This document shows, one piece after another, positions 515 to 56,241 of a DNA stretch of 64,000 bases (position 1 is its first letter; each line of letters starts with the position of its first letter). The translations under genes and the position numbers were made by a program. Under the pieces are notes generated by a model, which was not told where the DNA came from, ran no database searches, and saw nothing but the letters and a program-made list of their open reading frames with translations. Source of the stretch: Longimicrobiales bacterium (GTDB lineage: Bacteria; Gemmatimonadota; Gemmatimonadetes; Longimicrobiales; Gaopeijiaceae). The stretch spans positions 1,376,001-1,440,000 of the forward strand of contig CBDCNQ010000005.1 of NCBI GenBank assembly GCA_965219445.1. Reading direction: 5' to 3'.

Positions 515-1570
515 ATGGAGAGGTATATCGGACTCGACGCACACGCGTCGAGCTGCACGCTGGGGATTGTAGGCCCCAGCGGCAAGCGCTTGGGCTCGCA
601 GGTGGTGGAGACGAACGCGCGGGCGCTGATCGAGGTGCTGCGAGGGATTCCGAGGAACCGGCACTTATGCCTGGAAGAAGGGACGCTGTCGGGGTGGCTG
701 TACGAGGTGCTGAAGCCGCACGTGGAGGAGCTGACGGTGGCGGGGGTCGGCAAGAGCCGGGGCCCGAAGACCGACAAGCTGGACGCGTTTGCCCTGGCGG
801 AGAAGCTGCGGATCGGATCACTGGAGACGACGGTCTACAAGAACCGGGGCCAGTTCAGGCGGCTGGGGGAACGGGCGAAGAGCTACGACTTCTTGGTCGG
901 CGACACGGTGCGGGTGAAGAACCGGCTCAAGAGCGTGCTGCGCTCGAGAGGAGTGGCCTACGGCGCGGGGCGCTCGGTCTACTTAAAGCGCGACCGGGAG
1001 GAGTGGTTGGCCAAGCTGCCGGAAGCGAGCAGGACGACGGCCGGGTTGCTGTACGAGGAGCACGACGCACTCGTGGCATTGAGGGCGAAGGCCGAGAAGG
1101 CGTTGCTGGCGGAAGCACGCAAGCATCGAGAGTGGCATGTGCTGAAGACGTGCCCGGGTCTGGGTCCGATCCGGACGGCGGAGCTCCTGCCGGTGGTGGT
1201 GACGCCGTACCGGTTCCAGAGCCGGAGCAGGTTCTGGGCGTACTGCGGACTGGGCGTCGTGATGCGGAGCTCGTCGGACTGGGTGCGGGGTCCGGGTGGG
1301 CGGTGGGTAAGGGAACCGGTACAGCAGACGCGGGGGCTGAATCGGAACTTCAACCACACGCTGAAGCGTGTGTTCAAGGGCGCAGCGACGACGGTGATCG
1401 GTCGGGCCGAGGACGAGCCCTTGTACCGCCACTACGAGCGACTCCTGGAGGGGGGCACGAAGCCGAATCTGGCGAAGCTGACGATCGCGCGTCAGCTCGC
1501 CTCGATCGTGCTAGCGGTGTGGCGCACGGGCGAAGCGTACGACCCCAAGAGACTGGAAGCGACGGAGTAA
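515..1570 (+). CDS. IS110-family DEDD transposase/recombinase
   Basis: YIGLDAH, CLEEG and KTDKLDA (DEDD RuvC-like); CPGLGPI HhH; YCGL...RSSS catalytic serine region; GAGGAG RBS at 502-507. Confidence 0.93.
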   Translation: MERYIGLDAHASSCTLGIVGPSGKRLGSQVVETNARALIEVLRGIPRNRHLCLEEGTLSGWLYEVLKPHVEELTVAGVGKSRGPKTDKLDAFALAEKLRIGSLETTVYKNRGQFRRLGERAKSYDFLVGDTVRVKNRLKSVLRSRGVAYGAGRSVYLKRDREEWLAKLPEASRTTAGLLYEEHDALVALRAKAEKALLAEARKHREWHVLKTCPGLGPIRTAELLPVVVTPYRFQSRSRFWAYCGLGVVMRSSSDWVRGPGGRWVREPVQQTRGLNRNFNHTLKRVFKGAATTVIGRAEDEPLYRHYERLLEGGTKPNLAKLTIARQLASIVLAVWRTGEAYDPKRLEATE

Positions 1571-1599
1571 ACCGGCCTGGGATCGGCGAGCGTGGGGTC

Positions 1600-1810
1600 G
1601 AAAGCGGTCACAACATGGGGTCCGACGAAACGGAAGCGAACCGGTTACAGGGGACAGCATCCATACACACCGTGGGCCGGGGCAGAGAGCCCAAGCCCCC
1701 ACTCAAAGGCTATGCACCCCTGGAGAGCCGAACGAAGCGATGGGCCACAGAGTCCCAGATAGAAGGATGGTTCCCGCTCCAGAGCGGAGAACGCGACGGC
1801 TGTGAACGTC
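1600..1810 (+). ncRNA. Candidate bridge RNA/seekRNA of the IS110 element (boundaries approximate)
   Basis: Two similarly built internal-loop hairpins; TACACACC 1664-1671 is the reverse complement of right flank 1959-1966; ATAGAAGG 1759-1766 is identical to right end 1952-1959. Confidence 0.65.
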
Positions 1811-1963
1811 TTCCGGACTGCGATGCGGACCCTGCGAGCGCACCCCTCCCCACCCTGAGTCGTCGACCGGGCAATCCAAACCATGCGGACGCCGACGGTC
1901 AAAAAATGAGCCGACGGCGCGTGGGGAAGGTGCGTCTTGACCGCCAGCCCCATAGAAGGGTGT

Positions 1964-2250
1964 GTAAAAAGAGAGGATATCGTGGGACCCCAGGGTGCGT
2001 CCAGCAGGCCGATGTGGGAGACGCTCGAGGGGGATGGTTAGGGAGAAGGCGCAGGAGTTCATCCAACAGATCTTGGAGGAGGAAGTCACCGAGCTGTTAG
2101 GCCGGGAGAAGTCGAAGCGAAGAGAGGCGGTGGACGCGAGCCCGGGTTACCGCAACGGGTACGGCAAGGCGCGGCGGCTGTCGATGAGTTCGGGCACGAT
2201 CACGGTGCGACGCCCCCGGGTACGGGGTCTGGAGGAACGCTTCGAGAGTA
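1964..2250 (+). pseudogene. IS256-family transposase 5' fragment, frameshifted and truncated
   Basis: MWETLEG/MVREKAQEFIQQILEEEVTELLGR...GYRNGYGKARRL...ITVRRPRVRG; extra G in the G-run near 2029-2033; similarity ends at about 2250. Confidence 0.8.
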
Positions 2251-2293: not shown

Positions 2294-2680
2294 TCAGGAG
2301 AAACGAGAGCGGACCTGCCATACGTCGTAGACTTTTTTCAATTCTTCGACCCAACAACGATCTTCATCGGAAACGTCCCGCCCCAAACTCTTGGCCAGCT
2401 TAAAGAAACCACTCCCCGGTTTCCCGTCACCTCTGTGAACTACTACAGCTGTGAGCAACCCACGACTCCGTTCATCTTCATCGCTTGATATTTCGCCGAG
2501 CATCTGTGATAGGCGGGTGTCGTGAGGTTCAAAAGCGCAACTTGTAATCTGCTCCACGAGCTCCGAATACGACATGACGCCTCCGCGGGTCGCTACATCT
2601 ATCATGGCTCTGCGCGCTTGCTCCGTCGCAGCACCCCACACCTCATCGGTGAACCCGTGATCAAAGTTATCGCGTATCAT
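2294..2680 (-). CDS. Hypothetical protein, possibly winged-helix-like
   Basis: 128-aa ORF with YSEL...LGEIS...LLTAVVV...PGSGFF pattern seen in small accessory-island proteins. Confidence 0.6.
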   Translation of the reverse strand: MIRDNFDHGFTDEVWGAATEQARRAMIDVATRGGVMSYSELVEQITSCAFEPHDTRLSQMLGEISSDEDERSRGLLTAVVVHRGDGKPGSGFFKLAKSLGRDVSDEDRCWVEELKKVYDVWQVRSRFS

Positions 2681-3085: not shown

Positions 3086-3709
3086 CTACCACCGCGCGGG
3101 CTTCCGAATGTTGGTGCCCGGAATCGGGTCCGGCAGTTGCGAGCGCCGCAGGGCATTGGGCCGAACATGCCGCGCAAAGTCCGCATGCGCCATGAGCTGG
3201 CGCGACGGCCTTCCGGTTCCCGGCGTCACCAGGCCGATCCGCTTGCCGTGATGCTGCTTGACCAGGCGCATGGCCTCGGCGATGTCGCTGTCGTTGCTGA
3301 CCACCACCGCGCAATCGTAGGCGTCAAGCCAACCGTCGTTAAGCAGGTGGACGGCGAGATTGACGTCCGAGCCCTTCTCCTCGGTCCGGATCACCTCCAC
3401 CGTGCGCTGGTCCCTGGCCGGCTGCGCGAGCGGCGCGCTCACCTTGTGGCTCAGGAAATGCCCGAAATATACCTCGACCTCGGGCCGGTAGCGCCGAAGG
3501 GCACGGAGATAGACGTCCTGGCGCTGGGGTTTCGACGGGTCGGCGGGGGTGCCCGACACCCGCGCCGTGAAATACTTGACCGTCAGGATGTCGTGGTGCG
3601 GTTGCAGGACCTTCGCGAACAGCGCCGGCAGGTCGAGCCATTTCCGTGGCGTTCCCTTGAGCGCTCCATAGTAGAGATTGAAGCCGTCCACATAGACGAA
3701 GGTGCGCAT
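3086..3709 (-). CDS. NYN domain (LabA/DUF88, PIN-like) ribonuclease
   Basis: VYVDGFNLYYG, EEKGSDVNLA and VVSNDSD acidic PIN/NYN motifs; 207 aa. Confidence 0.9.
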   Translation of the reverse strand: MRTFVYVDGFNLYYGALKGTPRKWLDLPALFAKVLQPHHDILTVKYFTARVSGTPADPSKPQRQDVYLRALRRYRPEVEVYFGHFLSHKVSAPLAQPARDQRTVEVIRTEEKGSDVNLAVHLLNDGWLDAYDCAVVVSNDSDIAEAMRLVKQHHGKRIGLVTPGTGRPSRQLMAHADFARHVRPNALRRSQLPDPIPGTNIRKPARW

Positions 3710-3721
3710 CGTTGCCCGCCG

Positions 3722-3781
3722 TAAAAAGCAAGGGCCTCCGAAGAGGCCCCGCGCCCTGCGGTCGAAACCGCAAGGGGTGTT
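3722..3781 (-). ncRNA. Short structured leader RNA with intrinsic terminator upstream of the NYN gene
   Basis: Minus strand: TGCGGT-TTCG-ACCGCA hairpin, then GGGCCTC-TTCG-GAGGCCC hairpin followed by TTGCTTTTT. Confidence 0.6.
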
Positions 3782-3787
3782 GCCCAC

Positions 3788-3816
3788 AGTCTAAGCGCTT
3801 GAACGATCGGGATCAA
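3788..3816 (-). promoter_or_regulatory. Sigma70-type promoter for the leader RNA/NYN unit
   Basis: TTGATC (3816-3811), 17-nt spacer, TAGACT (3793-3788). Confidence 0.6.
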
Positions 3817-3867
3817 GCCGGCCCGTTCGGGATCGGGTGGCCGCCGCCGGTGTTTCCGGAGACGCGC

Positions 3868-4094
3868 CCGCGCATTGGAAAGATGCCGGTGTCGGAGGTC
3901 ACGAGTGCCAACGTGCTGGAAATCCTTGCGCCCATCTGGCACGCGAAGGCGGAGACGGCCCGGCGGCTACGCCAGCGCATCCGCGCGGTCTTGGAATGGA
4001 CCGTGGCGATGGAGTTTCGGATCGACAACCCGTGCGACCGGATCGACCCGGTCCTGGGTCCCCAGCATGACGTCGTGCAGCACATGCGGGCCTT
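3868..4094 (+). pseudogene. P4-like tyrosine integrase fragment (core-binding domain only)
   Basis: PRIGKMPVSEVTSANVLEILAPIWHAKAETARRLRQRIRAVLEWTVAMEFRIDNPCD...QHMRA; no N-terminal or catalytic domain. Confidence 0.8.
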
Positions 4095-4713: not shown

Positions 4714-5595
4714 CTAGAGCTCGGGCGCGGCCGGATCCCGGTCGGCCGGACCCCGTAGGGAGGAGCCATGATCCTCGCAGCCGAGCGCCCTAAGCACCCG
4801 CGCGGCGGCCGGTCCGTTGGCGTGCAGCACGAACCCGGCGGCCACCTTGGCACGTATGGAGCGAGCCCGGTAGTTGCCCGAGGCGACCTCGATGTTGACG
4901 CGTCCGGTGCGCCCCTCGGAGTCGGTGTACTCGATCTGCGCATCCGGGTAGAGCACCCGGCCTTGGGCATCGATCGGCAAGCCGAGCTCCTCGGCCACGC
5001 GGTGCCGCTCGGCGTCGGCGGCCCGCCGGCCGTCTTTCGCCCGCGCGGACTCGCTCTTGCGTGCGACGGCGCTCTTGAACTCGCCGTCGAGCCGCACACG
5101 GCGGACGGTGGCCCCCTGCTCGATCAGGCGTTGGTGCTCCTGGCGGCAGGCCCGATAGATGGCGGTGTCGTGCGCGGCTTCGGCGGGCCGGGTACGTGCG
5201 AACCCGATCTCCTGGCCGGGATCGATTCCCCGCTCGGCGGCCAGCTTCCGGGTCTCGGCCACGCCTTTCCGCGTGAGGGTCAGCACCTTGAACGGGTTGC
5301 CGTTGGGTCCAGTGGCTCGGGTTTCTTGGGCGAGCCCTTCGCGTATCCAGGCGTTCACCGCCCGTCGCGTGGTGTAGGGATGGCCACCGAAGTGAGCCTC
5401 GGCGAGATCGCGGTACGAGACGGTGCCGTAGATGCCGATGTCGGCGAGCGCCCCACGGCACCGTTCGCGGAAGGAGGTGGACCCGCGGTCCCGGCTCGCG
5501 TCGTATTCTCGGCGATGGCCGTTCCGCATGCGTTGGTTCGCGCGGCTTTGTGGCGCGGCGGGACGCGGGTCCAATCCGATCGTGCGGTCGAACAT
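4714..5595 (-). CDS. wHTH plus PD-(D/E)XK-like protein resembling the replication-relaxation (Replic_Relax) family
   Basis: N-terminal wHTH (VSYRDLAEAHF...LTLTRKG), H in AAHDTAIY, YPDAQIEY...NIEV...Y...IRAK; GGAG RBS. Confidence 0.55.
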   Translation of the reverse strand: MFDRTIGLDPRPAAPQSRANQRMRNGHRREYDASRDRGSTSFRERCRGALADIGIYGTVSYRDLAEAHFGGHPYTTRRAVNAWIREGLAQETRATGPNGNPFKVLTLTRKGVAETRKLAAERGIDPGQEIGFARTRPAEAAHDTAIYRACRQEHQRLIEQGATVRRVRLDGEFKSAVARKSESARAKDGRRAADAERHRVAEELGLPIDAQGRVLYPDAQIEYTDSEGRTGRVNIEVASGNYRARSIRAKVAAGFVLHANGPAAARVLRALGCEDHGSSLRGPADRDPAAPEL

Positions 5596-25801: not shown

Positions 25802-25901
25802 TCCATCTCCCGGTGAACCGAATATATACCGAAAATCAGGGCATCTCGGCACGATGCTTCGCCTACGATCTCAGGATAGGTGGAGCAAAGCAAGCCGGGG
25901 C

Positions 25902-25942
25902 AAAAAAAGAGGAGCCGCCGTCCAAAAGAGACCCGCGGCTCC
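25902..25942 (-). terminator. Probable intrinsic terminator after the sigma/anti-sigma operon
   Basis: GGAGCCGC/GCGGCTCC stem followed on the minus strand by TCTTTTTTT. Confidence 0.55.
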
Positions 25943-25989
25943 CCGACTTCAAGTGATCCAGCGTTGGGATACCACACTAAAGTGTGGCG

Positions 25990-26346
25990 TCAGTCCAGCC
26001 CCCCATCCTCCGCAAGCGCCTTGCGCACCCGTTCCTTCAGGCTTTCCGACACTCGACCACCGTTCTGGGCCCGCCTCAGGGCCTCCAGGAAGTGCTTCTC
26101 GAACTGGACGCGAGGATAGCAGGCCTTGCAGATCTCCAAATGCGTGCGGACCTCCTCCTCCGACACAGCCTCGAGCTCACCGTCCAAGAACTCAAAGAGT
26201 CGGGCGCTGGCCTCCTCGCAGGAGATCATCGCGACGGCCGTTTCACCGGGCGGGCCGCTGCTCCCCGACGCATCCGTACCACCGGACCGGCCATCATCCT
26301 GGTTGGCGCCGCCCAACAACTGTTTCAACGATTCGAAGAATGACAC
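25990..26346 (-). CDS. Zinc-binding anti-sigma factor (ZAS, RsrA/RshA-like)
   Basis: CEEA...FLDGEL...HLEICKAC (HxxxCxxC). Confidence 0.9.
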   Translation of the reverse strand: MSFFESLKQLLGGANQDDGRSGGTDASGSSGPPGETAVAMISCEEASARLFEFLDGELEAVSEEEVRTHLEICKACYPRVQFEKHFLEALRRAQNGGRVSESLKERVRKALAEDGGLD

Positions 26347-56088: not shown

Positions 56089-56161
56089 TGGTCGCTACTG
56101 GACTCGAACCAGTGACCCCTACGATGTGAACGTAGTGCTCTACCAACTGAGCTAAGCGACC
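56089..56161 (-). tRNA. tRNA-Val(CAC)
   Basis: Cloverleaf with GGTCGCT/AGCGACC acceptor, CTACG-TTCACAT-CGTAG anticodon arm, TTCGAGT T-loop; CCA not encoded. Confidence 0.97.
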
Positions 56162-56168
56162 CGCACCA

Positions 56169-56241
56169 TACCCCCACGGGGAATCGAACCCCGGTTTCCT
56201 GGCTGAGAACCAGGTGTCCTAGGCCACTAGACGATGGGGGC
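56169..56241 (-). tRNA. tRNA-Glu(CTC)
   Basis: GCCCCCA/TGGGGGT acceptor, CCTGG-TTCTCAG-CCAGG anticodon arm, TTCGATT T-loop; CCA not encoded. Confidence 0.97.

Follow-up and report, generated by a model that had tools for sequence, protein, structure and literature searches.

An NYN-fold nuclease gene and a conserved two-hairpin RNA as a candidate type III-like toxin-antitoxin module

Toxins of the PIN/NYN fold are normally held by proteins; VapC, for example, is neutralised by the protein VapB. Toxin-binding RNA antitoxins are known for ToxN-like and HEPN (AbiF) nucleases; for the PIN/NYN fold we came across no such description. Type III loci, as set out in PMC5086642, consist of a promoter, an RNA, a Rho-independent terminator and an RNase gene, with no protein antitoxin. 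In AbiF/AbiD, according to PMC12373285, a short hairpin RNA (abiF motif RF03085, RCd22) lies upstream in one or two motif copies, is terminated before the toxin gene, and acts in cis and in trans through protein binding. An antitoxin RNA can also be carried without its toxin: pseudo-ToxI of phage PhiTE is such a phage-encoded copy, reported for one phage and for laboratory escape mutants (PMC3475682). HEC-09 has been listed as a single-gene candidate defence system with an NYN domain like that of MARF1 and conserved aspartates; E. coli given one member together with about 150 bp of the DNA upstream was protected against none of the phages tried, and the main text of that preprint does not use "RNA", "non-coding" or "toxic" as whole words (bioRxiv 10.1101/2024.01.29.577857).

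The window analysed here is a 64,000-nt stretch of a Longimicrobiales genome, on the minus strand of which a 207-aa open reading frame for a predicted NYN (PIN-like) RNase of the PADLOC HEC-09 family (3086-3709) is preceded by a short RNA gene. The order of promoter, RNA, terminator and RNase gene, with no protein antitoxin, is shared with ToxIN/AbiQ, CptIN and TenpIN as published. The minus strand reads TTGATC-N17-TAGACT, two hairpins, a terminator and an ATG at 3709, just as a first-pass annotation of this DNA had reported. The predicted sigma-70-type promoter has its -35 hexamer, TTGATC, at 3811-3816 and its -10 hexamer, TAGACT, at 3788-3793, with a 17-nt spacer; taken alone it is an 8/12 match, and the promoter scanner makes no call there. 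The pattern TTG-N15-19-TAnnnT is nonetheless enriched upstream of homologues: 129 of 216 non-redundant loci have it, whereas shuffles average 22 and do not exceed 33. Of 63 relatives scored for the spacer, 31 likewise have 17 nt.

The candidate antitoxin is a non-coding RNA of about 60 nt (3723-3781, its start placed at A3781 or A3780). It opens with a conserved unpaired strand, ACACC (3776-3780; consensus A-Y-Y-C-C), and continues with hairpin P1 (3754-3775; 9 bp, UUCG loop), a one-base linker (C3753), hairpin P2 (3728-3752; UUCG loop, bulged U3730, near-invariant 3' UGC), which doubles as the intrinsic terminator stem and is picked up by the terminator scanner, and a U5 tract (3723-3727). 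The first-pass annotation was right that there are two hairpins and a two-hairpin RNA, but two points need amending: P2 is longer and runs through the conserved bulge down to a G-C/C-G base, and the 5' unpaired strand is also a conserved part of the RNA. The region 3782-3720 folds at -33.3 kcal/mol (z -4.8), with 0 of 200 shuffles equally stable. The ATG lies 13 nt past the U5 tract, and no Shine-Dalgarno sequence is visible ahead of the ORF, as had been noted before; a GGAG, GAGG or AGGA word within 20 nt of the start occurs in just 24 of 98 relatives.

The locus is set in a decayed mobile region containing IS110, IS256 and IS3 transposases and a pRiA4b ORF3-like gene, and the module seems to lie within a decayed integrative element. 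Some further features of the window are recorded for completeness. A 128-aa ORF 3' of the NYN gene (2294-2680, minus strand) gives a weak PADLOC match to a type II restriction endonuclease (E 0.0012), and may possibly be another defence remnant. A 293-aa ORF in the mobile region (4714-5595, minus) has no Pfam, PADLOC or NCBIfam match, two neighbouring tRNA genes lie at 56089-56241 (minus), and a fragment of a phage integrase central domain (3865-4044, plus) stands immediately 5' of the promoter. The same genome has a second NYN gene, 29% identical (G000:C3, L003, about 1500-2115, minus strand), flanked by two inverted copies of a transposase-like element and with no R1 match (see below) nearby.

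The upstream regions of homologues share the same RNA plan by eye, and we aligned 98 RNAs from the 216 non-redundant loci, selected for protein identity of at least 40%, a clean two-hairpin parse and low redundancy. As read from this alignment, the leader is a conserved, covarying RNA made up of the 5' AYYCC strand, P1, a one-base linker, the bulged P2 and a U-run. When the RNAs were aligned on sequence only, 91.4% of cells were paired against 71.1% in shuffles, and two-sided changes were found in 382 cells against 118, counts that are inflated because the 98 RNAs were chosen partly for two-hairpin folding; 0 of 500 shuffles matched either value, and slid controls paired at 37-56%. P1 shows two-sided changes in 9 of 9 pairs with 85% of cells paired, P2 has 96.6% of cells paired, and RNAalifold returns the same two helices. 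A conserved alternative antiterminator fold is not seen in this alignment. The two nested hairpins covary, their loops are UUCG-like or variable, and there is no evident pseudoknot.

Sequence conservation is concentrated in the 5' A and CC, the base of P1, the UUCG loop, the pyrimidine linker, the base of P2 and the 3' UGC, while the stem middles of P1 and P2 vary in sequence. In the 5' strand the A is kept in 85 and the last C in 83 of the 98 RNAs, and on the 3' side of P2 the bulged U is kept in 91, the G in 98 and the C in 95. Ten of the 98 have a weak U-tract (at most 3 U in 6) and retain P2. Among 43 close relatives, identity is 93% in the RNA, 76% in the first 150 coding bases, 55% at third codon positions, 33% in upstream DNA and 29% in the promoter spacer. 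No Rfam family matches the RNA, at gathering or E-value thresholds.

A covariance model built from the RNA alignment (R1) scores 69.3 bits in the window at 3785-3720, the next match having 18.2 bits; that second match (25901-25993, minus) is a hairpin and terminator after a gene and resembles an ordinary terminator. The first-pass annotation had proposed, as a check on its reading, to look for a conserved leader among homologues, and one is found: by R1, the conserved, covarying RNA adjoins NYN in 77 of 80 GTDB homologues, the remaining three lying at contig edges (in one, the RNA is present on an overlapping contig). The same holds for 99 of another 100 loci, where one match is weak and three are truncated; many loci in both sets are R1 training sequences. 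R1 scores distant homologues (below about 35% identity) poorly, and their one- or two-hairpin RNAs were judged by folding alone; four such members (L241, L242, L248 and L250) have two adjacent hairpins, no U-tract and about 5 nt to the start codon. A count of 210 of 216 loci from a generic two-hairpin parser was discarded as too permissive and lacking a control, since the parser also scored RNA-less loci such as L003. In three metatranscriptome runs, the summed contig depth in two RNA bins was 168/274, 233/245 and 171/49, with ORF depth mostly 10-50 and upstream depth about 2, and a fourth run was flat; these depths are not counted as evidence, because the relatives' contigs show no level, strand or ends.

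The protein of the window matches Pfam NYN (E 2e-8) and, over residues 2-207, the full length of PADLOC HEC-09 (PDLC04163, E 2e-43); NCBIfam gave no match, and a Pfam profile search gave none to HEPN or Abi_2. Its AlphaFold model (pLDDT 97) is that of a basic protein with a long beta-hairpin, and the best Foldseek matches are VPA0982 (PDB 2qip; LabA/DUF88) and the NYN domain of MARF1 (6fdl, 5yaa), with which, as with VapBC and other PIN toxins, it has in common a PIN-like fold and an acidic active site. The retention of the acidic NYN motifs, claimed earlier for the one protein, extends across the family: the catalytic-type residues D8, N11, D115, D140 and D142 are invariant among 65 aligned relatives. 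In a set of 121 proteins that covers every gene layout, none lacks D8 or D115, and 120 have D140 and D142. Net charge is positive in 117 of the 121. The active-site residues are intact, and the protein is a predicted RNase.

The family is large, with 3,274 clusters at 50% identity (E up to 1e-10), and its members are found on 455 plasmids and many viral contigs, small plasmids and prophages included. Many of the plasmid homologues are labelled 6-hydroxy-3-succinoylpyridine 3-monooxygenase HspA, a name to which the fold gives no support and which is probably a propagated mis-annotation. In one Rhizobium plasmid (L280, NZ_CP054030.1) the record annotates NYN as fused to a C-terminal Xre/MbcA/ParS antitoxin-type domain, and the fusion gene nonetheless has a two-hairpin region upstream.

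We looked among the neighbouring genes for a protein antitoxin, and in agreement with the first-pass annotation found no conserved partner, the largest neighbour family being present in 7 of 106 loci (heuristic ORFs of at least 60 aa). The locus differs in this from VapBC, as no adjacent co-transcribed or conserved partner protein is seen at NYN loci. PADLOC matched 9 of 108 neighbouring ORFs, 7 of them convincingly (Gabija, a CBASS-type effector, two HmaA, a methyltransferase, an AriA-like ATPase and PDC-S22); as these matches are few and have no background control, defence-island clustering is weak.

Taking the RNA and protein together, we think it probable that the module is a type III-like toxin-antitoxin system in which a predicted PIN/NYN-fold RNase would be held inactive by the conserved two-hairpin RNA of about 60 nt, and to this extent sequence comparison supports the type III-like interpretation of the first-pass annotation.

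Tandem copies of the RNA bear on how it might work. The window and most relatives have a single RNA unit, as the first-pass annotation had described, but the description of the RNA as non-repetitive does not extend to the whole family. Plasmids of about 4.6 kb from E. coli, Salmonella and Klebsiella (17 records) bear an array, and in the three that we read there are 4 or 5 units, then a plain terminator, then NYN. Each unit consists of an A-rich strand, CCC and a P1-like hairpin, with a period of 33. One such unit is found in L217, a sister of the plasmid-array members in the tree, and two complete RNA units are found in L193 and L273. An exact-repeat screen found upstream regions no richer in repeats than downstream regions (13 versus 11 of 226), repeats being confined to few members. 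The tandem arrays repeat the 5' strand and P1, and the arrangement points to these as the core of the RNA, and to RNA dose as what would matter. The E. coli plasmid members, with RNA repeats of about 33 nt in variable copy number, are in this respect like the ToxIN-type systems as described.

The most serious alternative, which we nevertheless regard as unlikely, is that the RNA belongs to an NYN ribonucleoprotein as a subunit with a structural, guiding or sensing role, the complex being the active or signal-gated form and the protein alone harmless. The tight linkage, the conservation at the junction and the basic protein with its long beta-hairpin would fit any binding partnership, and the published HEC-09 test gave no defence phenotype. 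However, no variable guide segment is evident, the unpaired parts being short and conserved; the longest perfect complement of the window RNA to its own start region and coding sequence is 9 nt. Tandem units, the survival of the RNA after gene loss and the lone copies in phages (below) also fit neutralisation better than activation.

To see the RNA from its own side, we searched two samples of 150 cellular genomes with R1, counting matches of at least 30 bits. Matches below this threshold (17 of 30, one of them NYN-linked, and 2 of 18) were omitted, and were mostly ordinary terminators. Of the 29 cellular matches retained, 20 adjoin NYN, 3 adjoin a stub and 6 are alone; 7 of the 20 are training sequences, and without training sequences 16 of 22 touch NYN or a remnant. 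On viral contigs, four pattern scans led to 28 real RNAs (44.8-71.8 bits), 21 of them distinct; the first pattern was unspecific, with 4 of 80 loci being real RNAs among the matches listed. One of the 21 distinct viral copies adjoins an intact NYN gene, one a deleted stub, and 19 are alone within 1-1.5 kb. The difference between 19/21 viral and 6/29 cellular lone copies gives a Fisher p of 1.6e-6, a rough value, since the two sets were detected in different ways and related copies do not count as independent. No NYN gene was found in 18 such viral records searched whole, five of them at least 95% complete, under a search in which the positive control record scored. A blastn search of the RNA against GenBank phages gave no match.

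Several of the viral copies sit in late operons. In two distinct T7-like phages (L496 and L516) it comes immediately after the gene for the head scaffold; this placement is not universal, since a relative of the L496 scaffold gene, 36% identical, has no RNA. Further sites are after terminase (L384), after endolysin (L490), in tail regions (L494 and L508) and, as two copies, ahead of a tRNA cluster (L513). In L495 and L496, a second, separate terminator hairpin follows the lone RNA. Elsewhere the RNA remains after loss of the gene (L284, L403 and L492); in L403, where the RNA resembles that of L213 and the ORF is lost at its start codon, the lone copy reads plainly as a relic, and the same holds for some others. 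In L471/L484 (G404), a C-terminal NYN stub lies between a pair of RNA copies some 250 nt from each other. Four viral loci (L505, L507, L509 and L510) have an extra hairpin between promoter and core RNA, which suggests that such lone phage copies may be a longer, three-hairpin form, and a 95%-complete phage has a structured, UUCG-capped sequence, not a tRNA, after its lone RNA (L515:1250-1300, plus strand).

The excess of lone copies in viruses, their occurrence in cellular genomes too (6 of 29), and the position after the scaffold gene in the two T7-like phages, plausible for a terminator or processing site, raise the question of whether the RNA has a role of its own, as a decoy for a host factor or as a protein-dependent terminator or processing site in phages, with NYN as a passenger or maturation enzyme. 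We consider this quite unlikely, since linkage is near-complete when seen from the protein side, 23 of the 29 strong cellular matches touch NYN or a remnant, no gene family recurs next to the lone copies, and those of L495 and L496 have a separate terminator hairpin after them. The lone copies were absent from the first-pass account. As copies of a candidate antitoxin RNA without a toxin gene they are like pseudo-ToxI as reported, although here there are 19 distinct natural viral copies, known from sequence alone.

The position of the RNA gene relative to NYN is not fixed. In a Mycobacterium prophage and a Paenarthrobacter plasmid, the RNA gene follows NYN on the other strand and has a TTGACA promoter to itself (R1 53 and 60 bits, respectively); in L215 it is upstream and divergent (46.8 bits), and in L328 it lies past NYN in the same orientation, again under a promoter of its own (47.8 bits). 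In a sample of 351 actinobacterial genomes (the phylum of L167), 26 have the gene. Eleven of these have a downstream, convergent RNA, and L328 is the single case of a downstream RNA in the same orientation; the RNA precedes the gene on its strand in five genomes with strong and five with weak matches, is weakly divergent in two, and escapes R1 in the last two. On a quick tree, as opposed to a finished search, six changes are required to account for the convergent label, two or more of them forced by well-supported branches, and L328 and the convergent L329 are sister proteins (support 100) with opposite RNA orientation. P1 and the 5' strand are kept at every RNA position. In a distant clade (L229, L312 and L233), folding alone suggests that the stop codon is followed by a promoter and an RNA of just one hairpin, which is also the terminator and has ACC as its 5' strand. 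The four orientations set the module apart from ToxIN-type systems.

Because the RNA gene moves, it is not only a leader, and the plain attenuator that the first-pass annotation had kept as its alternative is contradicted by RNAs at downstream, convergent and divergent sites with promoters of their own. A purely cis-acting RNA, whether attenuator, autoregulatory leader or terminator limiting nuclease expression, would suit the upstream, same-strand arrangement of most loci; P2 with its U-run is a sound terminator, and the 11 convergent cases by themselves are no proof of action in trans, because a convergent RNA can double as the terminator of the gene, working in both directions. The divergent L215 and the downstream, same-strand L328, however, cannot attenuate the gene, and the lack of a conserved antiterminator fold, the conservation of P1 and the 5' strand wherever the RNA moves, and the retention of P2 despite weak U-tracts all make this reading very improbable. 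That the RNA is an antisense (type I-like) antitoxin pairing with the nuclease mRNA is hardly credible: convergent copies do abut the NYN stop codon on the opposite strand, but they barely overlap the ORF, most copies are sense and upstream, and the complementarity of the window RNA is limited to the 9 nt given above.

Returning to the type III-like reading, the RNA would likely act as a free molecule, because its gene is upstream, downstream, convergent or divergent to NYN. By analogy with ToxIN and AbiF, the sigma-70 promoter in the window would yield mostly a short terminated RNA, and rare read-through would yield a poorly translated nuclease mRNA, so that the RNA should exceed the enzyme. 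The basic NYN protein would bind the RNA at its 5' AYYCC strand and at the junction of P1 and P2, where sequence is conserved and the stem middles vary freely, and the single strand of the RNA may occlude the active site. A halt in host transcription, such as phage infection can bring, would let the RNA decay and so release the RNase, and growth would stop or the infection abort; a small plasmid could also be retained by means of the module. Phages with the lone RNA would keep the NYN enzyme off, as pseudo-ToxI does for ToxN. It is quite possible, and we advance it tentatively, that these loci represent a new, phylum-spanning group of PIN/NYN toxins neutralised by RNA, with a relocatable antitoxin, and that they restrict phages so often that diverse phages, T7-like ones among them, have captured the RNA alone as a natural anti-defence element, set in late operons, downstream of dedicated promoters or next to a tRNA cluster.

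Against the type III-like reading stand chiefly the HEC-09 test, which was negative, the weakness of the clustering with defence genes, and the viral excess, which may reflect another function; in addition, the RNA, unlike ToxI and CptI, has no evident pseudoknot and is mostly a single unit. The negative test might be explained if the cloned upstream region included the antidote.

Among described systems, AbiF/RCd22 is, by analogy, the closest working model for the NYN/RNA module. AbiF differs in being a HEPN dimer with a function reported in the source cited above, and our RNA has no match to RF03085 or any other Rfam family. The ToxIN-type systems differ in that the fold here is NYN/PIN and not ToxN-like by Pfam and Foldseek, and that the RNA has two hairpins without an evident pseudoknot, usually in one copy. 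Because toxin fold and RNA type both differ, the module falls outside both the ToxIN and AbiF families. With HEC-09 (PADLOC PDLC04163) it shares the protein family, and some neighbours are HmaA-like helicases, but HEC-09 was described as a single gene, with RNA unmentioned in the main text, and here an RNA accompanies the gene.

The first-pass annotation knew of no characterised example, and in the literature found HEC-09 is listed as a candidate but its RNA is absent. We found no NYN-associated RNA antitoxin in that literature, which takes in subscription journals and two RNA-motif supplements in part, or in a 2026 preprint on the mining of non-coding elements. In the part of the Fremin 2021 supplement covered, two motifs list NYN within 5 kb, and an earlier description in the Weinberg 2017 or Fremin 2021 supplements or in subscription journals is possible.

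The comparison supplies a structured RNA family absent from Rfam, together with candidate RNA anti-defence genes in phages, and on the natural 4.6-kb E. coli plasmids the module is a 0.7-kb cassette. If the reading is true, it would give a function to a large and often mis-annotated protein family. The RNA, which accompanies the enzyme in many bacterial groups, is likely its antidote; the module would then be a toxin under RNA control, so far undescribed, and phages may disarm it with an antidote copy of their own.
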